Assembly: GCF_011045215.1 (NCBI RefSeq)
Contig: NZ_CP049201.1
Length of the DNA: 64,000 nt
Strand: one strand, 5' to 3'
Source of the DNA: Escherichia coli
GTDB lineage: Bacteria > Pseudomonadota > Gammaproteobacteria > Enterobacterales > Enterobacteriaceae
Under the pieces are notes generated by a model. It did not search any database. It had not been told where the DNA came from and saw nothing but the letters and a program-made list of their open reading frames with translations. Of this stretch, positions 18,680 to 29,832 are shown piece after piece (position 1 is the stretch's first letter; each line of letters starts with the position of its first letter). The position numbers were made by a program, and so were the translations under genes.

Positions 18680-20079
18680 ACACTCGCCAGCTACTGAGCG
18701 TCGGTATCGATATCGGCACTACCACCACCCAGGTGATTTTCTCCCACCTGGAACTGGTTAACCGTGCGGCGGTGTCGCAGGTGCCGCGCTACGAATTCAT
18801 CAAACGCGAAATTAGCTGGCAAAGCCCGGTGTTCTTTACCCCTGTCGATAAACAGGGTGATTTAAAAGAAGCGGAACTGAAATCGCTGATTTTAGAGCAA
18901 TATCAGGCTGCGGGCATTGCACCGGAAAGCGTTGATTCTGGTGCCATCATCATCACCGGTGAAAGCGCGAAAACCCGCAATGCTCGCCCGGCGGTGATGG
19001 CGCTCTCTCAGTCGCTGGGCGATTTTGTCGTTGCCAGCGCCGGGCCGCACCTCGAATCCGTGATCGCCGGTCACGGAGCCGGGGCACAAACCCTTTCTGA
19101 ACAACGGCTGTGTCGGGTACTGAATATCGACATCGGCGGTGGCACCGCGAACTACGCCCTGTTCGATGCCGGAAAAATCAGCGGCACTGCCTGCCTCAAC
19201 GTCGGTGGTCGCCTGCTGGAAACCGACAGCCAGGGGCGCGTGGTTTACGCTCATAAACCGGGGCAGATGATTGTGGATGAGTGCTTCGGCGCAGGCACCG
19301 ACGCCCGTTCGCTGACCGGCGCGCAGCTGGTGCAGGTTACCCGGCGGATGGCAGAGCTGATTGTCGAAGTGATTGACGGAACGCTCTCGCCGCTCGCGCA
19401 GGCATTGATGCAAACCGGTTTGCTGCCCGCAGGTGTTACGCCCGAAATCATTACGCTTTCTGGCGGCGTGGGCGAATGTTATCGCCACCAGCCCGCCGAC
19501 CCGTTCTGTTTTGCCGATATTGGCCCGCTTCTGGCAACGGCGCTGCATGACCATCCGCGCCTGCGTGAGATGAACGTGCAGTTTCCGGCGCAAACCGTGC
19601 GTGCCACGGTGATTGGCGCGGGGGCACATACCCTTTCGCTCTCTGGCAGCACAATCTGGCTTGAGGGCGTACAACTGCCGCTGCGCAATTTGCCGGTGGC
19701 GATCCCGATTGATGAAACGGATCTGGTGAGTGCCTGGCAACAGGCGCTGATTCAACTGGATCTTGATCCCAAAACTGACGCGTACGTGCTGGCGCTTCCC
19801 GCCTCGCTGCCTGTGCGTTACGCCGCGGTACTGACGGTCATCAACGCGTTGGTCGATTTCGTCGCGCGTTTTCCGAATCCGCATCCCCTGCTGGTGGTGG
19901 CCGGGCAGGACTTTGGTAAAGCTCTGGGCATGTTGTTGCGCCCACAGCTACAACAACTCCCGTTGGCAGTCATTGACGAAGTGATTGTCCGCGCGGGGGA
20001 CTATATCGACATTGGTACGCCTCTTTTTGGCGGATCGGTTGTGCCGGTGACGGTGAAATCACTCGCATTTCCTTCCTGA
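18676..20079 (+). CDS. eutA: Ethanolamine ammonia-lyase reactivase EutA
   Basis: 467-aa ORF, 4-nt overlap with eutH; eut operon synteny; followed by the inserted element. Confidence 0.9.
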   Translation: MNTRQLLSVGIDIGTTTTQVIFSHLELVNRAAVSQVPRYEFIKREISWQSPVFFTPVDKQGDLKEAELKSLILEQYQAAGIAPESVDSGAIIITGESAKTRNARPAVMALSQSLGDFVVASAGPHLESVIAGHGAGAQTLSEQRLCRVLNIDIGGGTANYALFDAGKISGTACLNVGGRLLETDSQGRVVYAHKPGQMIVDECFGAGTDARSLTGAQLVQVTRRMAELIVEVIDGTLSPLAQALMQTGLLPAGVTPEIITLSGGVGECYRHQPADPFCFADIGPLLATALHDHPRLREMNVQFPAQTVRATVIGAGAHTLSLSGSTIWLEGVQLPLRNLPVAIPIDETDLVSAWQQALIQLDLDPKTDAYVLALPASLPVRYAAVLTVINALVDFVARFPNPHPLLVVAGQDFGKALGMLLRPQLQQLPLAVIDEVIVRAGDYIDIGTPLFGGSVVPVTVKSLAFPS

Positions 20080-20172
20080 ATACTGTAGTTATCAGGCGTG
20101 GCGCTGGGTTGCGGGGTGTTAGTGGGATTATATCCGGCTGTGTATCCGGTCGGGGTGATTGGTCTGTATAGC

Positions 20173-20194
20173 AAAACCCGGCGCGGGGCCGGGT
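20173..20194 (-). terminator. Intrinsic terminator (minus-strand orientation)
   Basis: On minus strand reads ACCCGGCCCCGCGCCGGGTTTT: GC stem CCCGGC/GCCGGG followed by U-run, 7 nt after stop of the 20201-20761 gene; identical copy at 21822-21843. Confidence 0.6.
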
Positions 20195-20200
20195 GAACTA

Positions 20201-20761
20201 TCATTCAGGGAACAAGTTGATTTGAAGCAAACTGCCAATGTATTTACCAGTGCTTTTAATTTTTCGCTTTGATGGCTTACACGAATTCAGGTTGACACCA
20301 GCCTGGCTAGATATTGGCTTGTATTGCCGCTCCGCCAGTACGATCAGGTCTGCCGCGTCTTTTAGCTTTCCATCGTTAGCCAGTTCCAATGCTCGATCCG
20401 CCATTTGCCCGCATTGTTGAATCAGCTTAAGTTGCGATACCTCCAGTCGCAATTGCTGGATTCGTTCTACCACTTTCGCCCTAATGCGCTTAGTTTCACG
20501 CATTCCCATTCTTAATGCCTGGTTGCCAGTAAGTGAGTAAACCTCTTTTTCTTTCCTGAAGTTTGCGGCTTTACCGTCAGCTTGGACGCGCATTTTATGC
20601 GCTTCCAAGAATTCGCCCTCCAATTCATCCCTGATCTTCGCGTTGAATCTGTCGTTCTTGAGTTCATTTAACCCTTCCGCCTTGCGGATCTGGTTGATTA
20701 ACTCCAACAATTCATCACTGCGGATACGCCACTCGCTATCAACCTGTACCAAGTCAAACAT
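20201..20761 (-). CDS. Hypothetical phage protein (186 aa from ATG with GGGAG RBS; coiled-coil, possibly regulatory)
   Basis: ORF with good RBS upstream of internal ATG at 20761 (track start 20854 is TTG); no confidently recognised domain. Confidence 0.55.
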   Translation of the reverse strand: MFDLVQVDSEWRIRSDELLELINQIRKAEGLNELKNDRFNAKIRDELEGEFLEAHKMRVQADGKAANFRKEKEVYSLTGNQALRMGMRETKRIRAKVVERIQQLRLEVSQLKLIQQCGQMADRALELANDGKLKDAADLIVLAERQYKPISSQAGVNLNSCKPSKRKIKSTGKYIGSLLQINLFPE

Positions 20762-20924
20762 GTTGTTGCTCCCGTTTTGCTGCCATAGGGCAACGGCTCG
20801 CCAGCCTTTATCACCTCCTTTAGTTGTTGCGATTCTTAACTGAATGGTTATCAAAACGCTGCGTTAATATCATTGATATGTATCAAATTTGTTTTGTGAC
20901 GCGACAATGCCTTGTGAATATCAA

Positions 20925-20949
20925 TAAAAAACCCAGCGCTATGGCTGGG
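20925..20949 (-). terminator. Intrinsic terminator (minus-strand orientation)
   Basis: Minus strand CCCAGCcatagcGCTGGG followed by UUUUUU, 45 nt downstream of stop of 20995-21723 gene. Confidence 0.5.
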
Positions 20950-20994
20950 CTTCTCTTGATGGCTGGTTTTGTAGCTAATCGTTGGCTTTAAGGG

Positions 20995-21723
20995 TTAAGC
21001 AACAATATTAATCCCGCTCCTTGTCGCTGCCTCTTTGGCAATTTTCCCCTCGTCCTCCAGTTTAGCTAACGCCTTGTACATCCAGTGGCGGCCCGGTGCG
21101 CCATGCAGCTTGCCATCTTTGCCGATCTTACCGAACGCATGTAACGCCAAATCGTCGATAGTCCCCTTGTATCCGCCTTGCTCCTTAAGCCATTGCTCAA
21201 GCTGTTCTACTTTGAATTTTGCCGGACGTCCGCCAGCCGCTTTTTGTTGTTTAGCTGGTTCTTCTGCAATATCGCTTTTGTTGTTTAAGTCCGTCATGAC
21301 TGGTTCTCCTACAATAGCGTCGCCCTTGGTCTCGATTTGTTGATTAACTGGTTTGTCTACAATATCGATTTTGTTGTTTAGCTGGTTTTTCAACATATCA
21401 ATCTCAGCCTTTAGCGCCTCGTTTTCTCTGGCTAGTTCTTCGCAACGCTTGATAAATTTTTGTTCCATGCCGTCCGGGCTATCAACGTGCGCCGTACCCA
21501 TTACGATCTTCCCGTTGCTATCGAAGATGACAGCTTGCCAACCGACTGCGGCGAGCATTTTAAACACATCATCAGCGGTCTTGTTTGTTGTATCGCGACG
21601 CCCTTTAAACTTGTGGCTAGCAGCGCCTTTGCCTTTGAAGCCCATTGCCTCAGCGACATCTTGCCGCGTCATCTTGCGAGCGCGCTTGTTCATGCCTAAC
21701 TCAACCCAATCCATGTATTCCAT
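20995..21723 (-). CDS. Hypothetical phage protein with internal tandem peptide repeats (242 aa)
   Basis: ORF with GAGGT RBS; DNA and protein contain imperfect tandem repeats (LNNKIDIVDKPVNQQ / LNNKSDIAEEPAKQQ); basic N-terminal region possibly DNA-binding. Confidence 0.6.
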   Translation of the reverse strand: MEYMDWVELGMNKRARKMTRQDVAEAMGFKGKGAASHKFKGRRDTTNKTADDVFKMLAAVGWQAVIFDSNGKIVMGTAHVDSPDGMEQKFIKRCEELARENEALKAEIDMLKNQLNNKIDIVDKPVNQQIETKGDAIVGEPVMTDLNNKSDIAEEPAKQQKAAGGRPAKFKVEQLEQWLKEQGGYKGTIDDLALHAFGKIGKDGKLHGAPGRHWMYKALAKLEDEGKIAKEAATRSGINIVA

Positions 21724-21821
21724 ACATTACCTCATTTTGTCGCTAAACGTTTTGCTTTCTAATTTATCAACAAAAAAGCGGGTGATGGTAGCCGCTTTGA
21801 TGGGGAAGTTGACAGGGATCA

Positions 21822-21843
21822 AAAACCCGGCGCGGGGCCGGGT
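21822..21843 (-). terminator. Intrinsic terminator (minus-strand orientation), identical copy of 20173-20194
   Basis: Same 22-bp sequence aaaacccggcgcggggccgggt; 18 nt downstream of stop of AlpA-like gene 21861-22091. Confidence 0.6.
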
Positions 21844-21860
21844 ATTAGCAAGTTAGATGA

Positions 21861-22091
21861 TTACTGGGTATCGCTGTCAGAAAGTAGTCCAATTGATTTA
21901 AAGAATTTCATCACATCCTGATAGCGATACATGACGCCCCGCCCGGTTCCCAGCACATCAACAGGGTCGGGGAATGGAGTTCCGTTCTGTTCCCATTTCT
22001 TACGCCACGAATAAAACGTTCCCCTGCTAATTCCGCCCAGCATCCGGCAGATGGCAGGGCGGCTAAGAAGGATTACTTCATTTTTATCCAT
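21861..22091 (-). CDS. AlpA-family phage transcriptional regulator / excisionase-like HTH protein (76 aa)
   Basis: Motif LSRPAICRMLGGISRGTFYSWRKK...FPDPV typical of AlpA/Xis-type HTH; GGGAGA RBS. Confidence 0.6.
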   Translation of the reverse strand: MDKNEVILLSRPAICRMLGGISRGTFYSWRKKWEQNGTPFPDPVDVLGTGRGVMYRYQDVMKFFKSIGLLSDSDTQ

Positions 22092-22110
22092 TGTTTAATC
22101 TCCCGTGTGT

Positions 22111-22299
22111 TTATTTTGCGTAGATTAAGGCAAATGCTCTTTTGGCTTTGCTTAGTTCGTATTCGCGTTTTTCTATGATTGCCATCAGTTCTTGTGCGGT
22201 GGCTGGCACGCCCGCTCTTATCAGCGCAATCTTAGTATCCATAGCGCACACTCTTTCACGCACCATATCGAAGATAATTTCCGCTCTATCGTGTTTCAT
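22111..22299 (-). CDS. Small hypothetical protein (62 aa)
   Basis: ORF with strong GAGGTGA RBS 5 nt upstream of ATG; 19 bp upstream of AlpA-like gene, likely co-transcribed. Confidence 0.5.
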   Translation of the reverse strand: MKHDRAEIIFDMVRERVCAMDTKIALIRAGVPATAQELMAIIEKREYELSKAKRAFALIYAK

Positions 22300-22648
22300 G
22301 ATTTCACCTCATATTTGTTGCTAAACCTTGTAAACCCTTGTTTGACTACAAAATACACCTGGTTAAGCGACTGATAAAATGATTTAGGTCAATTTATTGG
22401 TTGATGATTTATGTCTGATTGGATTTGTCTACAAATGGCAGGTTAGTCAACAAATGATGAAACCAGGGAATGGCGGTTATAATGTCAGCGGGGATTGTGA
22501 GAAAGGCCCGGGTAGGTTGCTAACTGCCTGGGCCTTTATTTTTGGCGCGTGTACGTGAAATCTGGAAAATTTGCAGGGTAGTTGTTGAGGGATTTTTCGC
22601 GTAGGAGCGTGAAGGGTCCGCCAGTCATCGCCCTGACGTAGCGGTGAA

Positions 22649-23050
22649 TTACTTGCGAGGCTCACCCATCGGCCAGGCACCTTCATTGCGACGATAACCA
22701 ATCCGGTACTCTTCCGGCAGCGGCAAGCCCTGCTCACGATATGGACGCAGATCGAAGCCAAAAACAGGATCGTCGTCGTAGGCGAGGAATAGCCCGGCAG
22801 GCTCTGCCACGCGTTCGATAATCAGTTCCCCATCTTCAACGAAGAAGATCAGATTATCGCGAAAGTCCGTTACCTCACTGACGTGATAACATTCGGCATG
22901 TGCGTCCAGCCAGGCTTCTCGGTATTCCTGAATCTCGGCTTCTGACCATGTTGAAACAGGACGCTCCCAAATTCCCAGGCTGGATTTGCCCTGGCGGGAG
23001 AATAATTTTGCCTCTTTGCTCTGCTCTGGTTTTCTGTTTAAAAAGCTCAT
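22649..23050 (-). CDS. Hypothetical protein (133 aa)
   Basis: ORF with AAGGAGAA RBS; no recognised domain. Confidence 0.55.
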   Translation of the reverse strand: MSFLNRKPEQSKEAKLFSRQGKSSLGIWERPVSTWSEAEIQEYREAWLDAHAECYHVSEVTDFRDNLIFFVEDGELIIERVAEPAGLFLAYDDDPVFGFDLRPYREQGLPLPEEYRIGYRRNEGAWPMGEPRK

Positions 23051-23186
23051 TATTCTTCTCCTTTGAACGGATTGTTCTTGCTCTCTAATAACTTAGCGCG
23101 ACCCAGTAACGTCCGGGCAAGCGCCTCCGCCTTCCTTAGCCTAAGCCCTGCGTCTTCTGCGTCCAGATCTACATTCCTGATAGCCT

Positions 23187-23450
23187 CTACAGCCTGCTCC
23201 GCTGCGTCCGGGCGTGAATCCACTTAAATATGCCGATATGCTCACGAAAGTCTGGATGCTCATATTGCCAGCGGCAGATTGTTCTGAAGCTCGGCATGTC
23301 AGGCATGTTGCCAATCTCTCTGAGACTATGGCCTTCAGCTACCAGCAAGCAGATTTCTTCAGCGATAGCGACCCCATACTTAGCGCTTTTTCTGCTTAAA
23401 CTTGTGACATCAACAGGTAAGTTATTGATTTCTTTATCATCACCCTTCAT
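23187..23450 (-). CDS. Small HTH protein resembling the DNA-binding domain of phage terminase small subunits (87 aa)
   Basis: Motif AEGHSLREIGNMPDMPSFRTICRWQYEHPDFRE resembles TerS-type HTH; GGGGGTAA RBS; family assignment is from memory and tentative. Confidence 0.4.
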   Translation of the reverse strand: MKGDDKEINNLPVDVTSLSRKSAKYGVAIAEEICLLVAEGHSLREIGNMPDMPSFRTICRWQYEHPDFREHIGIFKWIHARTQRSRL

Positions 23451-23525
23451 AATTACCCCCGAATTGATAGCGAATTGATAGCGAATTACCCCGAATTACC
23501 CCCGAATTACCCCCGAATCACCATC
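23451..23525. repeat. Tandem array of about 6.5 copies of an 11-bp unit (AATTACCCC(C)G x4 and AATTGATAGCG x2)
   Basis: Directly visible: aattaccccc g aattgatagc g aattgatagc g aattacccc g aattaccccc g aattaccccc g aatcaccatc, exactly filling the gap between the 93-aa gene stop and the 87-aa gene start. Confidence 0.85.
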
Positions 23526-23527
23526 AT

Positions 23528-23809
23528 TTAACCCTCGCCTACGTCTGCGTCGATGCTTGCTAACTGGCTGTGTAGATCGCGTTCAATCATTTTTACCTTT
23601 TTCACAAAATCCCTTTCCTCGGCGGTGGCGGGCGCGCCCTGGGCTATGTTTTTCGTGAGGTCGTGGAAAGTGCCGAAAACATAAAGGGAGAACAGCCTTA
23701 ATTGTTGCCGCTTCATTGGCAAATCACTGTTGCTATGTTTGATCTCAGCGACGCCTTTCGAAATAACACGGGCCATCCCATGACAAATTCTTAACGTAAG
23801 CGCAGACAT
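23528..23809 (-). CDS. Hypothetical protein (93 aa)
   Basis: ORF with GGGGAG RBS; no recognised domain. Confidence 0.5.
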   Translation of the reverse strand: MSALTLRICHGMARVISKGVAEIKHSNSDLPMKRQQLRLFSLYVFGTFHDLTKNIAQGAPATAEERDFVKKVKMIERDLHSQLASIDADVGEG

Positions 23810-23930
23810 GATATTTACTCCCCGACTGGTATAATGAACGTGGTTTTAAACGTTGCTATTTGCTAACCATTTAATCTGTTAACTCAATTTCGCATTGTTG
23901 GCCCGGCACGAACACCGGGCTTTTCTTTAC

Positions 23931-24272
23931 CTATTCGAAATAGCTTCCAATATCCGGTGTCCGGGTATCAGTTTTCCGGGTCGGCTCGAAGTACGATTCC
24001 AGATCCGGCGTTTTCGGCCCACGCTGGGCGTTGGCGGCGGGTTGCTTTTCTTCTGGCTGTTCCGGCTGTTTACTACCAAATCGGCGCTCCAGTTGGTCCA
24101 TCAGCACTACCATCATTTCCTGGACCAGCTTTTCATCGGCTTTATCAAGGTTCTCCAATACCATCGCCATCCCTTTGCGGAATTTAAGCTCAGCGTCGTC
24201 CGGTTCCGGTGCTGATTCGTTTGCTTTAACTGCCAGGGCGATCCGGCGTTTTGCTTCATCCAAAAAATTCAT
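23931..24272 (-). CDS. Hypothetical acidic protein ending in repeated SYFE motif (113 aa)
   Basis: ORF with GGGGGAA RBS overlapping stop of upstream gene; C-terminus ...DLESYFEPTRKTDTRTPDIGSYFE. Confidence 0.5.
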   Translation of the reverse strand: MNFLDEAKRRIALAVKANESAPEPDDAELKFRKGMAMVLENLDKADEKLVQEMMVVLMDQLERRFGSKQPEQPEEKQPAANAQRGPKTPDLESYFEPTRKTDTRTPDIGSYFE

Positions 24273-24277
24273 TTTGT

Positions 24278-24721
24278 TTATTCCCCCATGTGGAAATAGT
24301 CATCTAAGCGGCGATTAAACTCGTCGCTGCCATCGAAATATTCACGGATACTTTTATTGACCAGATCATCACCGTCGAAATACTGGCGCGTGAAATCGTC
24401 CAATTCCCCATCGAAGTATTGACGTGTGAAATCGTCTAATTCCCCTTCAAAATATTGACGCGCATCAGGCGCTCTGTTTGGCGCTGTAGCAATCTCAGAT
24501 TGATTGCCCTGTAACTTATCGACGTTTGCTAAATACACGCCCAGTGAGCTGTTTGTTCCCATTACCGCAAGCATTTTCCGGCGATCTGCCATGTTCGGCG
24601 CGAGCGATGATAATTGAGCTTTAATTTTGTCCACTTCCTGATTAACAATACGGTCAATCAGTGGTTGATTCGTGCGAATAATTTCCTGTGCCAACTGGCG
24701 AATATATTCTTTGCGTGTCAT
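24278..24721 (-). CDS. Hypothetical protein with C-terminal tandem RQYF(D/E)GELDDFT repeats (147 aa)
   Basis: ORF with GGAGAT RBS; encoded by about 3.5 tandem 36-bp DNA repeats near 24330-24465. Confidence 0.55.
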   Translation of the reverse strand: MTRKEYIRQLAQEIIRTNQPLIDRIVNQEVDKIKAQLSSLAPNMADRRKMLAVMGTNSSLGVYLANVDKLQGNQSEIATAPNRAPDARQYFEGELDDFTRQYFDGELDDFTRQYFDGDDLVNKSIREYFDGSDEFNRRLDDYFHMGE

Positions 24722-24739
24722 TTCTTATCTCCGTTCATC

Positions 24740-25123
24740 TCATTTCTGTAAAAAACCCATACCGTGGCCCAGGCGATTTGAAATTTTCCCGGCAAGCATC
24801 CGGCGAATATGTTTTTCGTTGATGATGTCGTGAGTGACCGGATCTTCACCTTTCATACATTCCGGCATCTGGTCAAACAATACGGAAGCGCCTTCATCAA
24901 TAATCTCAGTTAAGACTGCTGGCAGCATATTAATGATGCGTTCTGCTTCGTCGTTCATTGCTTTATCGAACGCTTTTTTATCCATTGCTTCGGCGGATGG
25001 TTTGTAATTGTCGCCAGTCAGGTTAAGGTAAGTGTTGTTTGGGTGATACATGGCATTCACTCCTTTTACTTTGATTGTTGCGATTTCTTTGTTTTTGTTA
25101 ATTGTGGTGCCTTTGACTTTCAT
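24740..25123 (-). CDS. Hypothetical protein (127 aa)
   Basis: ATG overlaps stop of HNH gene (ATGA), suggesting translational coupling; no recognised domain. Confidence 0.5.
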   Translation of the reverse strand: MKVKGTTINKNKEIATIKVKGVNAMYHPNNTYLNLTGDNYKPSAEAMDKKAFDKAMNDEAERIINMLPAVLTEIIDEGASVLFDQMPECMKGEDPVTHDIINEKHIRRMLAGKISNRLGHGMGFLQK

Positions 25124-25539
25124 GCTGCTTCTTCCTTCAATAATTGTGGCAATTTGCCTGTTAGTTCGATTTCTTCATTAATAGATGCAAGTAACTGTCT
25201 CAGTTTGCGATGTAATAGCTGGTGACGCTCTCTCGGCATTTTTACCAGGTTGCTTAAGCGGTTATTCTGCGGATCGTAGTCCCGGTGATGGATATCATAT
25301 TTTCGCTCATCGTAAACACCGTAGCACCATAACCAGGCAGCCTTTTCTATTGTCATGCAGGTACGTTTTCCGTTGCTTAAACAAATGGTTATACTCAGGT
25401 GACCGCGATGTTTTTCGTTTAAGCTGCCTTTAATTACCTGGCCTGTGCTGCGGTTGTGAAATAAACCAGTTTCAGGGTCGTAGTGATATTTCTGTCGTAA
25501 TATATCAACTGATAACCGTAGTCTTGTAAGATTGTCCAT
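25120..25539 (-). CDS. HNH homing-type endonuclease (139 aa)
   Basis: Motif YDIHHRDYDPQNNRLSNLVKMPRERHQ (HH...N...N...H) typical of phage HNH nucleases; GAGGTAG RBS. Confidence 0.7.
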   Translation of the reverse strand: MDNLTRLRLSVDILRQKYHYDPETGLFHNRSTGQVIKGSLNEKHRGHLSITICLSNGKRTCMTIEKAAWLWCYGVYDERKYDIHHRDYDPQNNRLSNLVKMPRERHQLLHRKLRQLLASINEEIELTGKLPQLLKEEAA

Positions 25540-25571
25540 GATGTTCTACCTCAATGTGATTGCTGTGTTAA

Positions 25572-25757
25572 TTATCTTTCTTCTTGTGGCCTATTCAGCC
25601 AGGCCTCGATCTCGCTACGCCAGAATAATAAACGACAATTTCGCGGCGTAAATGGTTGGGGTATTGTCTTATCTTTTAATAGCCATCTTCGAATCGTTCT
25701 TGTTGATACCCCCGCTATTAATGCGAAAGCTCGCAGATCTATAACTTCATCTCTCAT
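25572..25757 (-). CDS. AlpA-like HTH regulator (61 aa from ATG with GAGGT RBS)
   Basis: Sequence LIAGVSTRTIRRWLLKDKTIPQPF...WRSEIEAWL matches AlpA/Xis-type HTH pattern; track ORF start 25862 is a TTG extension. Confidence 0.55.
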   Translation of the reverse strand: MRDEVIDLRAFALIAGVSTRTIRRWLLKDKTIPQPFTPRNCRLLFWRSEIEAWLNRPQEER

Positions 25758-26537
25758 GTTCTTACCTCGATTAAAAAGGACCGCCCCCAGGGAAAGAAGA
25801 AAGAGGAAAGAGGAAAGAGGAAAAACTTCCTGGAGGCGGGTAATTCGGATTCCTTGAATCAATATCCCATGTGATACTTAATATTATAAAGGGCGGCGGG
25901 CTATGTCGCTATTTTTGCCATAGTGTGACACCATTAATTTATTAACAAAAAGTGCTATTTATTAAATCTTTTTTCGGCAGGTGCAAGAAAAATAATTGCG
26001 ACACGGTAGGGTAGCGGGCGATAATAATCATGTAAGGAGTAGCCACCTTACGCCTCCAAATGTGATCGATAAAAATAATAGTCTCAATTCTTTCTCCCGC
26101 TTCTCGGCGGTTTTTTTGCCTGCAATCACACATCAAAAAAACACATCGAATTGATATGCCTTTAAAACGCAATATAACGCATTTTGACGGCCTTAATTTT
26201 TGCCTATCCACTCGGAAGCGTAAGCCTGTTTTGATTCGTCTGGCGTGGAATGGTGCGGCGGTAATATCAGATCTCAGCGTTCTGTGTGGTGGGATGGAAT
26301 AGCCTGGCAGGATCTGCGTGTGATTTCATTCATCCAACCTTGGATGAATGGTCCGATCTGGTCAGTAGTCCGGCACAAATAAAAAGCGCCTGCGGGCGTA
26401 GCAGACGCTTTGTGTACAGGCTTATCAGTACGGGATGTGCACGAATGATTATACCACCCTCAGAAAAACGTTTGCTTTTGCACTTAAACGGATAAGTGGT
26501 ATTTCTTGGTCTTCATTGGTTTTAGCTCACCATAGGC

Positions 26538-26765
26538 TCATTTAGGTGCGCCCCTGTCGATAATTCGGTACATGTTCTCGGTATATCTCCCGTTAATCAC
26601 CGTTCTGGTAACAACAATCACACCGTTTTCCTCCAGAAAGGCAATGGCCCGCTTCACTCCCTGGCGGCTTACACCGGATAGCTGCGCCAGCCTGTCAATG
26701 GAGATGTTGTATTTGTCCGGCTGGCTTGTCAGGATCTGGAATACCGCTCGTGCTGTTTTCGTCAT
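26538..26765 (-). CDS. Small winged-helix DNA-binding protein (75 aa), candidate regulator
   Basis: Sequence ISIDRLAQLSGVSRQGVKRAIAFLEENGVIV has HTH character; divergent from the plus-strand cassette; RBS weak. Confidence 0.45.
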   Translation of the reverse strand: MTKTARAVFQILTSQPDKYNISIDRLAQLSGVSRQGVKRAIAFLEENGVIVVTRTVINGRYTENMYRIIDRGAPK

Positions 26766-27037
26766 GGCAAAAACTCATTGAAATTGGATACCCTTAGAAC
26801 GCTCTCAAACGCTCCGTAATGCGATGAGAATTTTACCTAAGCAAGTGTAGCTCTTTATTAGTTTTATGATGCCGTAGGCCGATAGAAGGTGCGCTCTCTG
26901 AAGTTTCATTGTCTATCAGTGGTGGGTAATGCTGCCTTTACTATTGGCGTCAAGAAAATCACTGGTGTAGATTGGGCGAATAGTTTACTATTCAAACAAG
27001 GCACAATGGCCTTAGCGGATTGATGTCAGGAGATACC

Positions 27038-27385
27038 ATGTCAAAAATAGTTACTTTGTTTGCGACTAAGCGAGAAGGGAAATCCCTTTCTGTGCGCACT
27101 CGTAAGCCAAAAGCTATGACTGGCTTGCGTAAAACAAATCGTCTGACGCATCTTGACGCGTTAGCGTATCGACTAGGATACCAGTTGGTGCGCGGTAAAA
27201 GTGTCATGTTTCGCTACACTGCTACTCTCGATCACGAAGAAAACAAAGTGATGAATGCGGCCTCGCCTATGGCTGTACCACGAGTAAAAAAAATGACGTT
27301 CACACAAGCGTGTGATTTATCAAAAGATTTATTCGATTCACGAGAAGAACGCTTAAAGAGTGTAAGCTTTGATGGTCCAGAATGA
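27038..27385 (+). CDS. Basic 115-aa protein, candidate partner (antitoxin or regulator) of downstream YafO-like gene
   Basis: ATG at 27038 preceded by AGGAGA RBS; stop overlaps start of next gene by 14 nt; basic N-terminus and acidic C-terminus; no recognised family. Confidence 0.5.
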   Translation: MSKIVTLFATKREGKSLSVRTRKPKAMTGLRKTNRLTHLDALAYRLGYQLVRGKSVMFRYTATLDHEENKVMNAASPMAVPRVKKMTFTQACDLSKDLFDSREERLKSVSFDGPE

Positions 27386-27887
27386 ATTTATTGGTAAGGT
27401 CTACAGTGATAACAAGTTTAAAACAAACGATGAATTAAAGAGCTTTAAGGATTCGTTTATTTATCATTGGAGATATGGACATCATCCTGATTTTGGAAAG
27501 GATACTCTTTTCCATAAACCCCCGTGTGTATATCCTATCCATTTACGTAAAGTCCATGTAAATATTGGTCTTTATACCAATCAGTACGGCTATAGCGGGA
27601 CAGAACAATGCTGGGATGACTGGTCTACTGGTCGTTATGGTCCCGGTGGTTTCGAAAAAGTTACCCCTACATCTGATGCTTATCTTATATACGCTGTATG
27701 TAAAAATAGAAATGCTGGCGTGTTAGACTTCTGGTTTCCTCCCGCACACAAAAACGCTGAGTTCGAATCCTCTGTACAGTTTGTGGCTGAGATGGCTGAT
27801 AAGTTTTATGAGTCTATCAAGGCGGACCCGATGCCGCGCGATCAGAATCCTTGGCATACGGGGTATATAGTTAAAAAACCAGCCTGA
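27372..27887 (+). CDS. YafO-family toxin-like protein (171 aa)
   Basis: Motifs F-I-Y-H-W-R-Y-G...PDFGKDTLF, YPIHLRKVHVN and SDAYLIYAV line up with recalled YafO motifs (FISYKRDG...PDIFGRDALY, ERVAHIHLAN, DEAHLVYCQG); similarity judged from memory, not computed. Confidence 0.45.
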   Translation: MVQNEFIGKVYSDNKFKTNDELKSFKDSFIYHWRYGHHPDFGKDTLFHKPPCVYPIHLRKVHVNIGLYTNQYGYSGTEQCWDDWSTGRYGPGGFEKVTPTSDAYLIYAVCKNRNAGVLDFWFPPAHKNAEFESSVQFVAEMADKFYESIKADPMPRDQNPWHTGYIVKKPA

Positions 27888-28438
27888 TCCACGCAATACT
27901 GATTGTTTTTGGCCTTGTATGGTGTGGTCTGATTTGAGGCAAAATTATTTAATCCCTTAAAAAACTAACTTCAAAAGACTAAAACCAGGGGGATGGTCCC
28001 TCTCGCTCCGCTCCAGGTACCATCCCTGTCGGGATGGGTTTATTGTAGAGTTAAAATTAATTACTCACATCGTCACACCTTGCGAAAGTTTTGCTCAATT
28101 ATCATTCAAACATAGCACAAAAAATATTCGATTTAGTTAGTGTGCACTGACTTTTTTATCAATTTACTTTCATTCGAAAGTCATGGGTTAAATATTAATC
28201 ATCTGGCTGTGGCACGCATGGATTCACCGAGGGTATTTTGGACCATTTGGTCAAAATTCATAAGTACATGATTTCATGGTGATTTATTTTTCTGTATCTT
28301 GCTTTCATTCGAAAGTGGAAACGAAGAATTGGCAATTTATTGATTCAGATCATTGACATTGCATATTTGTGGCGGTTGTCACGGTTGTTTTTTGAGCGCT
28401 TCAACCGTCGATATTGAGTATAAACCCGGCCTTATAGT

Positions 28439-29644
28439 TCACGGTTCAAGTGGATTACCGTCACCAGCCAATATTGAATCAATAGCGTCGGCGTAATCCT
28501 GCATCATTGCTCGCCGTTGCTTCAGGTAGGCCGCCTGGTTATAAACGCCGCGCACACCTTTCGGGACGTGGGCCAATTGGATTTCGATCCAGTCTGGTGA
28601 GTATCTGCCAGACTCATTAAGCGCCGTTGAAAAGGTGGTCCGCCAGCCATGACCAGTGGCAATGGATTTATAGCCGATCCTCTCAAGCGCCTTCAGTATC
28701 GCGCTGGCTGAAAGTGGCTTATCCATGAATCGACCAGGGAAGACGAAAGCACTGTATCCGCTCCTTGTAAACTGGTCCTGTAATAGCTCCACCGCCTGCC
28801 GTGATAGCGGGACCACATGCGGGCGGCGGGCCTTCATGACTTCAGCGGGCAATGTGATTGTTGCGTCCTCCAGGTTTATCCATTCCCAACGGCACAAACG
28901 CAGTTCTGCGGTCCTTAATGCCGTTAATATAAGCAAACGTATTGCCGTCTGAATCTGGACGCTCCCGGCCCTCTCAAGGGCTTTGTAGAAGGCCGGAATT
29001 TCACTAATCGGTATCCACGCGTTGTGACCAGGTCGGCGGGCCTTCAGTGCCGTATCAAGATCTGCAACCGGATTCCTCGTTACCAGTTCGGTGATAACGG
29101 CAAACTTGAAGATCTCACCGATGCGCTGGCGTAGCTTGCGGGCCTGCTCCGGTGCGGTACGTTCTTTCTTCTGGAGTAATGCCAGCACGTCACGGGCGGT
29201 TATATCGACAATCGACCGCTTGCCAAGTACCGGATAGACGTCTTTTTCTAGGGCCGATCTGACCTGTTTTGCATAGGATTCCGACCACCCTCCAACCCTA
29301 GTAGCAAACCAGTCTTCCGCCACCTTCTTAAATCCTGCCGCCATGTTGAGCGCATCAATGGCTTTTTCCTTGCGGGCTTGTTCCACTGGGTTAATTCCAT
29401 TGGCAATAAGGGATCTGCTCTCCGTGGCGCGCCTGCGTGCTTCTTTGAGTGTGATTAGCGGGTAAACACCAATAGCCTGCAAAAACTCTCGTTTATTCAA
29501 CCAATACCTGAATCGCCAGTATTTCGAACCGTTGGGATGCACCAGCAAAAACAGCCCCGGCGTCAGTGAATCGGTGAGTTTATAGGGCTTGTCCTGCGGC
29601 TGTGCGGCGTCTATGGCCTTTGCTGTGAGTGGTGTCTTGCTCAA
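28439..29644 (-). CDS. intZ: Tyrosine-type site-specific integrase (prophage integrase)
   Basis: 401-aa ORF with phage integrase features (N-terminal arm-binding domain, C-terminal catalytic region with ...HGWRTT...); sits at the element end beside eutB as intZ does in E. coli K-12; start appears to be TTG. Confidence 0.8.
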   Translation of the reverse strand: MSKTPLTAKAIDAAQPQDKPYKLTDSLTPGLFLLVHPNGSKYWRFRYWLNKREFLQAIGVYPLITLKEARRRATESRSLIANGINPVEQARKEKAIDALNMAAGFKKVAEDWFATRVGGWSESYAKQVRSALEKDVYPVLGKRSIVDITARDVLALLQKKERTAPEQARKLRQRIGEIFKFAVITELVTRNPVADLDTALKARRPGHNAWIPISEIPAFYKALERAGSVQIQTAIRLLILTALRTAELRLCRWEWINLEDATITLPAEVMKARRPHVVPLSRQAVELLQDQFTRSGYSAFVFPGRFMDKPLSASAILKALERIGYKSIATGHGWRTTFSTALNESGRYSPDWIEIQLAHVPKGVRGVYNQAAYLKQRRAMMQDYADAIDSILAGDGNPLEP

Positions 29645-29832
29645 AACCGGATACCTTGATTTAACGACTGGATAACCCCGATCATGTATCCGGCGCGTTC
29701 GGTTGCGTTCGGCAGGATAAGTAACGGGCGTATTAAGTGGAACACCTTACAGGACAAGGGCTAACGATGAAATAGAATTGTTTGCAGGCTGTGAGAAATG
29801 TTAATCGTCACTTCTTCCTGAGGGAACGACTT

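Follow-up and report, generated by a model that had tools for sequence, protein, structure and literature searches.

The DNA analysed here, referred to as the window, comprises 64,000 nucleotides (nt) of Escherichia coli contig NZ_CP049201.1 (NCBI RefSeq assembly GCF_011045215.1) and carries an island of the CPZ-55 type between eutA and eutB. Within this island, an open reading frame (ORF) of 87 amino acids (aa) lies directly downstream of a tandem array of 11-bp units and upstream of a gene for a 133-aa protein, hereafter the partner; the coordinates of these and related features are collected in Table 1. The original prediction, made from the letters alone, took this ORF for a small stand-alone helix-turn-helix (HTH) protein resembling the DNA-binding domain of a terminase small subunit. 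The ORF product consists of a disordered arm at the N-terminus, followed by a three-helix HTH and half of a long helix (its first half), and a Shine-Dalgarno sequence (GGGGG) is located 7 nt upstream of the ORF start. Among complete E. coli genomes, CFIAFB20180540 (locus L001; 97% DNA identity in the alignment) is closest, and its annotation shows a 'terminase small subunit-like protein' of 133 aa at the equivalent place. Alignment to L001 revealed that one base, GCCC[A]GGAC, is absent from the window terS-like (terminase small subunit-like) gene between positions 23210 and 23209, and when this base was restored the gene translated to 133 aa. All recovered terS-like homologues are 133-144 aa long, the intact 133-aa gene was present in 10 of the 10 contigs carrying exactly the same downstream partner protein, and 133-aa members of the same 90% cluster were found in hundreds of contigs; the exact 87-aa sequence (QIF12726.1 / WP_164475558.1) is recorded from a single 5.41-Mb contig. 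As judged from these comparisons, the 87-aa ORF is not a natural small protein but the 5′ portion of a pseudogenised yffO-family gene with a private 1-bp deletion. The frameshift at codon 81 falls within helix 66-92, and thus the 87-aa product keeps the HTH and loses the oligomerisation hairpin; the central helical oligomerisation core (helices 66-92 and 101-126) is found in the intact 133-aa alleles and not in the window ORF. A 57-aa ORF retains the remainder of the original frame and ends in TAATG, overlapping the start of the next gene. The deletion therefore costs the protein its hairpin and the downstream partner gene its translational coupling. What appears as an 87-aa 'protein' results from truncation, and it should be annotated as a pseudogene of the terS-like (yffO-family) gene.

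Comparison of the repaired codons 81-133 with those of L001 showed seven synonymous and no non-synonymous differences, which implies that the lesion is either very recent or an assembly error. In the latter case the strain would have an intact 133-aa gene, a matter separate from the functional question. An assembly error would suit the singleton status of the 87-aa allele, the lack of non-synonymous change in the out-of-frame part, and a second 1-nt indel 290 bp away in the G5 run of the array (GGGGG to GGGG). A real mutation is nevertheless favoured because the missing base lies outside any long homopolymer (GCCC[A]GG), the flanking chromosomal genes in the window (about 54 kb) are all full-length ORFs, and the island has an independent 2.9-kb deletion that fits real decay; an error of assembly is accordingly regarded as improbable, albeit worth keeping in mind. 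Since the oligomerisation core, the translational coupling of the partner and a tape-measure-like gene have all been lost, the window copy is most likely a recently inactivated, non-functional member of a decaying island.

Profile searches placed the gene product in a terminase family. The 87-aa ORF matched the Pfam family PF20901 (Sf6_terminase) with E=2e-11 and 44.3 bits (gathering score, 27), residues 28-71 aligning on positions 4-47 of the 106 profile positions, and PHROG 1482 'terminase small subunit' with E=8e-12, and no match was found in NCBIfam. The resemblance that had been proposed was thus borne out by hidden Markov model search, and no profile pointed instead to transposase N-termini or another unrelated HTH family. 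The 133-aa allele scored 45.3 bits and covered profile positions 4-91 of 106. When a ten-member family profile was searched against the PDB sequences, Sf6 gp1 was the sole match (3HEF, 4DYC, 4DZJ and 4DZP; E=6e-9), with query residues 23-107 aligned on residues 12-96 of the 140 in Sf6 gp1. The AlphaFold2 model, built from a 21-sequence alignment, had a mean pLDDT (predicted local distance difference test) of 83.6, exceeding 90 for residues 25-125. It comprised a disordered arm (1-21), the three short HTH helices 27-38, 43-47 and 55-64, all with pLDDT >90, and two long helices (66-92 and 101-126), and no beta strand was predicted for the 133-aa protein. A Foldseek search of the PDB with this model returned only Sf6 gp1 chains (probability 1.0, TM-score (template modelling score) 0.51-0.58, 109 columns, 27-28% identity), the rest being noise. 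These results revealed the intact gene product as an Sf6-type terminase small subunit of 133-144 aa consisting of an arm, an HTH and a two-helix hairpin, so that the intact 133-aa protein is a near-complete small terminase and not the bare DNA-binding domain first supposed.

The island proteins and Sf6 gp1 (PDB 3HEF, 4DYC/4DYQ; PF20901) belong to the same family by both sequence and predicted fold, with an N-terminal HTH and a two-helix oligomerisation core, and R48 of Sf6 gp1, mutated in 4DZP, aligns with R60, which is invariant in the island family. The island protein differs from Sf6 gp1 in its low identity (about 27%), in an extra 20-residue disordered N-terminal extension and in ending before the stalk and C-terminal tail of the Sf6 gp1 type, the window copy being truncated still earlier, at codon 81. 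Unlike that of Sf6 gp1, the island gene has no gene for a large terminase, portal or capsid alongside it in the island. When 1.84 billion representatives were searched exhaustively with HMMER, 1791 matches reached E<=1e-3. Values below 1e-30 were restricted to the representative of the family itself and two neighbours of 138 and 144 aa; the remaining matches are mostly phage small terminases, many of them with two to four repeated HTH domains. The ratio of non-synonymous to synonymous substitution rates (dN/dS) of the terS-like gene is 0.04-0.2, indicating purifying selection.

The tandem array upstream of the gene, which the original prediction had pointed out, proved to be real: its six head-to-tail 11-bp units read GATTCGGGGGT, AATTCGGGGGT, AATTCGGGGT, AATTCGCTATC, AATTCGCTATC and AATTCGGGGGT on the gene strand, and the chance expectation of this pattern in the window is 0.01. 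The last unit supplies the GGGGG ribosome-binding site. An RNA element was ruled out by the lack of structure relative to shuffled sequence (z=0.11) and the lack of an Rfam match, and a promoter found no support, no promoter-like site being present there on the gene strand. Most alleles of the island family have an array directly before the start codon. Wherever arrays occur, their period is always 11 bp, they end at the ribosome-binding site of the terS-like gene and they comprise 4-8 copies, the copy number varying from 4 to 6 even among near-identical islands. Three core types were distinguished, AATTCG, TTAGCG and TCAGAG. TTAGCG arrays of 5-8 units were found at L002, L021, L023 and L025-L028, and GGGGTCAGAGA mixed with TTAGCGA, in up to 7.7 units, at L006 and L009. 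The array type tracks the N-terminal arm of the protein: AATTCG arrays occur with the arm SRKSAKYGVAI in 13 of 13 loci, and class-A alleles with TTAGCG arrays carry a RKR[A/T]KYT[I/V]AL arm in all six cases.

A scan of IMG/VR for three copies of either core at 11-bp spacing gave 60 loci. In one of them, an environmental viral contig (L042:738-765; IMGVR_UViG_3300004692_000308), three 11-bp units of CTCTTAGCGGA are followed by a fourth copy 80 bp on. This array lies about 200 bp downstream of an Sf6-family small-terminase gene (PF20901, E=7e-17) and precedes ORFs of 447 aa and 713 aa, neither with a Pfam match, which look like a large terminase and a portal gene. The arrangement is suggestive, albeit a single case without statistical significance.

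The window island shows the features of the CPZ-55 family, namely insertion between eutA and eutB, a CTTCCTGA duplication, an IntZ integrase and a yffO homologue; this site and this 8-bp duplication have been reported for the cryptic prophage CPZ-55 (PMC6379469). A megablast survey covering 5,426 complete genomes of E. coli, combined with the annotation of eight loci, delineated a mosaic but syntenic family of 10-13-kb islands inserted between eutA and eutB, the gene order of which recurs in at least 20 loci and of which the terS-like gene is a core gene. In nearly all members the partner gene is followed by a tape-measure-like gene of about 727 aa (PHROG 1538, E=1e-105), whose product is 34-43% identical to assorted siphovirus tape measures, and some members have an HK97-gp10-family gene. 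No large terminase, portal or capsid gene was recognised in the window island or in the relatives examined, and no tail tube gene in the relatives carrying the tape-measure-like gene. The earlier statement that no large terminase lies nearby is therefore correct for the island (20080..29822), while the view of the element as free of structural genes holds for the window island and not for those relatives with tape-measure-like and, sometimes, HK97-gp10-like genes.

Table 1. Positions of the features discussed, in the window unless a locus is named
Feature	Position	Strand	Remarks
Reported ORF, 87 aa	23187..23450	minus	ATG start; codons 1-80 of the yffO-family terS-like gene plus 7 out-of-frame codons
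Premature stop of the 87-aa ORF	23187-23189	minus	
terS-like gene, whole footprint	23050..23450	minus	401 nt in the window, 402 nt in relatives
57-aa ORF	23050..23223	minus	C-terminal 52 codons in the original frame, covering the latter half of helix 66-92 plus helix 101-126
11-bp array, six head-to-tail units	23451..23522	minus	candidate terminase recognition site
Partner gene, 133 aa	22649..23050	minus	in the intact gene, its ATG and the terS-like stop overlap as TAATG
93-aa gene	23528..23809	minus	directly upstream of the array; 60-84% identity across island classes; no family match
Island, 9.7 kb	20080..29822		between eutA (stop at 20079) and eutB; CPZ-55 integration site
CTTCCTGA island boundaries	20072-20079 and 29815-29822		
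IntZ-type tyrosine integrase, 401 aa	28439..29644	minus	
HNH_3 homing-endonuclease-type gene, 139 aa	25120..25539	minus	only in some family islands
Junction, 110 bp	22507..22616		replaces about 2.86 kb of L011 (tape-measure-like gene and 74-aa gene)
Hairpin with 14-bp stem	22502-22537		at the deletion junction
Tape-measure-like gene	L001:6533-8722; L002:3832-6021; L011:3714-5894		absent from the window at 22507-22616

At L001 (NZ_CM143725.1 776644-789154), an island of the same type, with an integrase 93% identical and CTTCCTGA at its left junction, is located in yghO, which suggests recent integrase-mediated movement to a secondary site. CPZ-55 of K-12 has been reported to excise at low frequency (PMC3105296). 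When the island was compared with 50,697 phage records at the nucleotide level, the only match was a 200-bp HTH gene of mEp021 and mEp515. The synteny, the second site, the excision, the absence of other phage matches and the purifying selection argue for a self-standing family of elements and not for debris of a known prophage. Within the operon, the segment of the terS-like and partner genes is the most divergent (31-67% and 17-57% identity, respectively, versus 60-93% for the two upstream genes).

The K-12 counterpart, YffO (b2446), is encoded in CPZ-55, which shares the eutA/eutB site, the CTTCCTGA duplication and an IntZ integrase with the window island, and its product matched the family profile with E=2.5e-36 and PF20901 with 37.5 bits. 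It represents a different allele class (about 50% identity); at 6.8 kb the K-12 island is the smaller of the two, has no 11-bp array upstream of the gene and carries the 197-aa YffP as partner instead of the 133-aa protein. The homology of YffO to Sf6 gp1 was published in 2023 (PMC10380284). The same report described specific binding of the quinone oxidoreductase QorA to a 27-nt fragment of yffO mRNA with a dissociation constant of about 7 uM, as determined by systematic evolution of ligands by exponential enrichment and electrophoretic mobility shift assay (PMC10380284).

We propose that the locus represents a satellite-type terminase small subunit with its candidate recognition site, inactivated in the window, and we rate the chance that this proposal, with its presumed packaging function, is correct at about even. 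The intact protein would assemble into a ring, as Sf6 gp1 does, and the ring would bind the 11-bp head-to-tail array before its own gene, where sites one helical turn apart would suit the successive, identically oriented HTH domains of a ring. The array-bound ring might then recruit the large terminase of a helper phage, and island DNA would be packaged instead of, or alongside, phage DNA in a small-subunit swap of the SaPI type. SaPI1 and SaPIbov1 encode a small terminase, TerS_S, that redirects the packaging motor of the helper to an island-specific site. TerS_S is the likeliest functional parallel as it, too, is an island small terminase without a large terminase; it belongs to an unrelated sequence family and a different host, and the E. 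coli islands, for which helper phage, induction, packaging and pac site are all presumed, have no capsid-remodelling genes. The intact relatives possess their own small terminase and no large terminase, as expected of a satellite, with the gene broken in the window. The idea of a packaging module in a satellite fits the family, which shows an integrase, a small terminase without a large one, purifying selection and an array at a conserved position, and does not extend to the window copy, which is frameshifted, has lost about 2.9 kb and is probably not working.

Several observations weigh against packaging, the first of which concerns the C-terminus. The island family has neither the beta-barrel stalk nor the C-terminal tail of its phage homologues, and in P22 the C-terminal tail is needed for binding of the large terminase (PMC9611059). 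In the alignment with phage homologues, the island alleles all end within about 15 residues of a conserved K..P motif, whereas the phage proteins run on with 'KKYG' and 25-60 more residues, a region corresponding to the beta-barrel stalk and C-terminal moiety (PMC9611059). The small terminases of HK97, T4 and P74-26 are likewise without the barrel (PMC9611059), and its absence is therefore no bar to a terminase role. The short C-terminus would also suit a decoy: the stalk-less protein might co-assemble through its hairpin with the Sf6-type small terminase of a helper, the mixed rings shifting specificity or poisoning packaging, so that the island would be mainly an anti-phage or interference element, Rpp-like on a different scaffold. 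Hypervariability such as that of the terS-like and partner cassette would be typical of a module engaged in an arms race, and Rpp demonstrates that E. coli islands hijack a phage small terminase by mimicry (PMC6739421). We nonetheless consider interference unlikely, given that several genuine phage small terminases are also stalk-less (PMC9611059), that no PADLOC defence family was matched, that no partner coliphage encoding a close Sf6-type small terminase emerged, and that the protein has no similarity to Rpp in sequence or fold.

The comparison with Rpp (RppA/B/C of the E. coli PICI EcCICFT073) had been suggested at the outset, and the two do share being small HTH proteins of E. coli islands without their own terminase, with packaging redirection proposed for both. 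Rpp combines a winged HTH of the MerR / lambda Nu1-like type with a coiled-coil dimer and heterodimerises with lambda TerS at cos sites (PMC6739421), while the island protein has the ring-type fold of Sf6 and its island lacks the primase/replication module of a PICI. The Rpp structures 6HLK and 6HN7 appeared neither among the PDB sequence matches up to E=10 nor among the Foldseek matches, and membership of an Rpp-type family was not supported.

The array supplies a second set of points against a packaging role. In the K-12-type and 136-140-aa allele classes, the 140 bp upstream of the gene are devoid of an array. Our prediction was that the type of array would track the putative recognition helix (residues 55-64), and four further alleles were examined; the prediction failed, as P0003 and P0005 share helix 3 with the window protein and carry TTAGCG arrays (their helix-3 regions are exactly or nearly that of the window, P0005 having one substitution just upstream of the helix). 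Because the arm is encoded beside the array, the association between arm and array type is explained by linkage, with a recombination breakpoint inside the gene, as well as by functional covariation. The array might accordingly be the site of something other than the terS-like protein, such as an iteron-type origin or a site for another island, helper or host protein, its adjacency being incidental or regulatory. Identical recognition helices with different cores and the allele classes without an array agree with such a view, as do the TTAGCG core common to alleles only about 46% identical and the frequency of tandem 11-bp arrays with these cores in viral contigs generally. On the other hand, no replication initiator was recognised beside the array, three allele classes have the array without exception at the 5′ end of the gene, and at L042 a TTAGCG array stands near an Sf6-type small terminase, with the caution attached above to that single case. 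An origin or a site for a different protein is deemed improbable, with the array kept as a candidate site of the terS-like protein.

A third set comes from the searches for helpers and packaged copies. No coliphage was recovered at E=1e-3 when the terS-like protein was searched by tblastn against the 50,697 phage records, the closest phage small terminases being about 31% identical (Bordetella BPP-1 and Pseudomonas phages). Peptide and DNA scans of IMG/VR for class-A alleles found no copy, neither the window array nor the TTAGCG-type array had a match in the phage collection, and no replication module was recognised in the island; as regards a helper and packaging into virions, these negatives amount to an absence of evidence only. 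In addition, nothing was confirmed by tblastn when GTDB species representatives were scanned with the island-type alignment. The lack of packaged copies in IMG/VR, the decay of the window island and the overlap of the array with the ribosome-binding site, which suits autoregulation, would be compatible with a cryptic-prophage relic or a domesticated DNA-binding protein, e.g., an array-binding autoregulator, or with a neutral remnant, derived in each case from a phage small terminase that has given up its packaging role. Against such an interpretation stand a conserved, size-restricted architecture kept as intact ORFs in hundreds of genomes under the dN/dS given above, allelic diversification of exactly the terS-like/partner cassette, islands without nucleotide relation to known phages, and a second integration site indicating recent mobility. 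Head-to-tail repeats one helical turn apart would also be more in keeping with a protein that binds as a ring or filament than with a dimeric repressor. A relic or regulator is therefore judged a minority explanation, unlikely but still to be reckoned with.

Returning to the satellite interpretation, we put forward, tentatively and with more doubt than confidence, that the CPZ-55 family may constitute an undescribed class of E. coli phage satellites with its own stalk-less ring-type small terminase and an exchangeable specificity cassette of array, arm and partner. Intact members, with their own tape measure and HK97-gp10-like connector, would hijack both packaging and tail assembly of a siphovirus helper. 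In gene content, the intact islands with terS-like, HK97-gp10-like and tape-measure-like genes can be likened to the EPIP satellites of Mycolicibacterium, which are reported to encode a terminase small subunit, a tape measure and head-tail connector proteins (bioRxiv 10.64898/2025.12.02.691453). EPIPs differ in belonging to another phylum, in using a serine integrase and in having capsid and scaffold genes listed, and the window island has lost its tape-measure-like gene. According to a December 2025 preprint, tape measure proteins are essentially unknown in satellites. The canonical PICI order was not found: an integrase and an AlpA-like HTH gene are present, and no primase, helicase or replication gene was recognised. 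PICMIs were rejected as the closest family since they lack terS according to their paper, and EcCIMP1 was rejected as a comparator for want of an identifiable terminase gene.

The bare terminase homology is not new, because it is contained in PMC10380284 and in the NCBI name 'terminase small subunit-like protein'. In the literature searched, CPZ-55 was called only a cryptic or 'grounded' prophage, and we did not find the frameshift diagnosis, the stalk-less architecture common to the island alleles, the allele-linked 11-bp arrays, or the CPZ-55 family as a candidate satellite with terS-like and tape-measure-like genes. The finding is a good lead at the level of the family, the window feature itself being a pseudogene. 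If the packaging interpretation is true, one of the nine classic 'cryptic prophages' of K-12 would be reclassified as a degenerate satellite, and a means of transfer would be at hand for a widespread family of islands (the assembly collection lists the partner protein by itself in 1359 blocks). Beside Rpp, E. coli would have a second, structurally different solution to satellite packaging, and naturally occurring variants of array and arm would be available with which to study DNA recognition by ring-type small terminases, a process described as still 'elusive and controversial' in a 2022 review (PMC9611059).

As for the remaining genes of the island, the partner gene was found in E. coli only, and its protein had no match in Pfam, PHROG or PADLOC; its AlphaFold2 model was moderate (pLDDT 72), and a Foldseek search against BFVD returned noise. 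Other genes encode a winged-HTH protein of 75 aa that weakly resembles initiator N-termini, an AlpA-like HTH protein, a weak anti-repressor-like protein, two small proteins (one HTH_23), and a 242-aa coiled-coil ORF product whose homologues in relatives are annotated as HTH-domain/XRE-family proteins, and five small ORFs have no family. The HNH gene was considered as a cos-cleavage partner and set aside as unlikely, being of the HNH_3 homing-endonuclease type and variably present. The 76-aa HTH_23 gene (21861..22091, minus strand) is about 87% identical in DNA to the integrase-adjacent gene of mEp021 and mEp515 and may be an excisionase-type gene. On the strand opposite to the rest of the island (27020..27887, plus), a YafO-family toxin gene (172 aa; PHROG 1651, E=9e-43) and an overlapping upstream gene of 121 aa form a pair found in only some family members.

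Several repeats were also observed. A 36-bp tandem repeat of 2.4 copies (24375-24462), within the ORF 24278..24721 (minus) for a 147-aa protein, encodes the 12-residue motif DDFTRQYFDGEL and is kept in L001, L002, L005, L008 and L010. An iteron-like 23-bp direct repeat, AGGTGGGTCAAAAGTTGCCGTTA, absent from the window island, is situated near the integrase end of some islands, including K-12 CPZ-55 between yffL and yffM (L003:4454-4543, 3.9 copies) and L008 (L008:11153-11218, 2.9 copies). At the eutA-proximal end of the window island, the GC-rich, hairpin-forming 22-nt sequence AAAACCCGGCGCGGGGCCGGGT is present as identical intergenic copies at 20173-20194 and 21822-21843, with a third, degenerate copy at 20928, and these copies may be terminators. 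The 7-bp repeat GGAAAGA (4.7 copies, 25791-25823) occupies the 5′ end of the listed ORF 25572..25862, in which the AlpA-like HTH starts at an internal Met downstream of the repeat.

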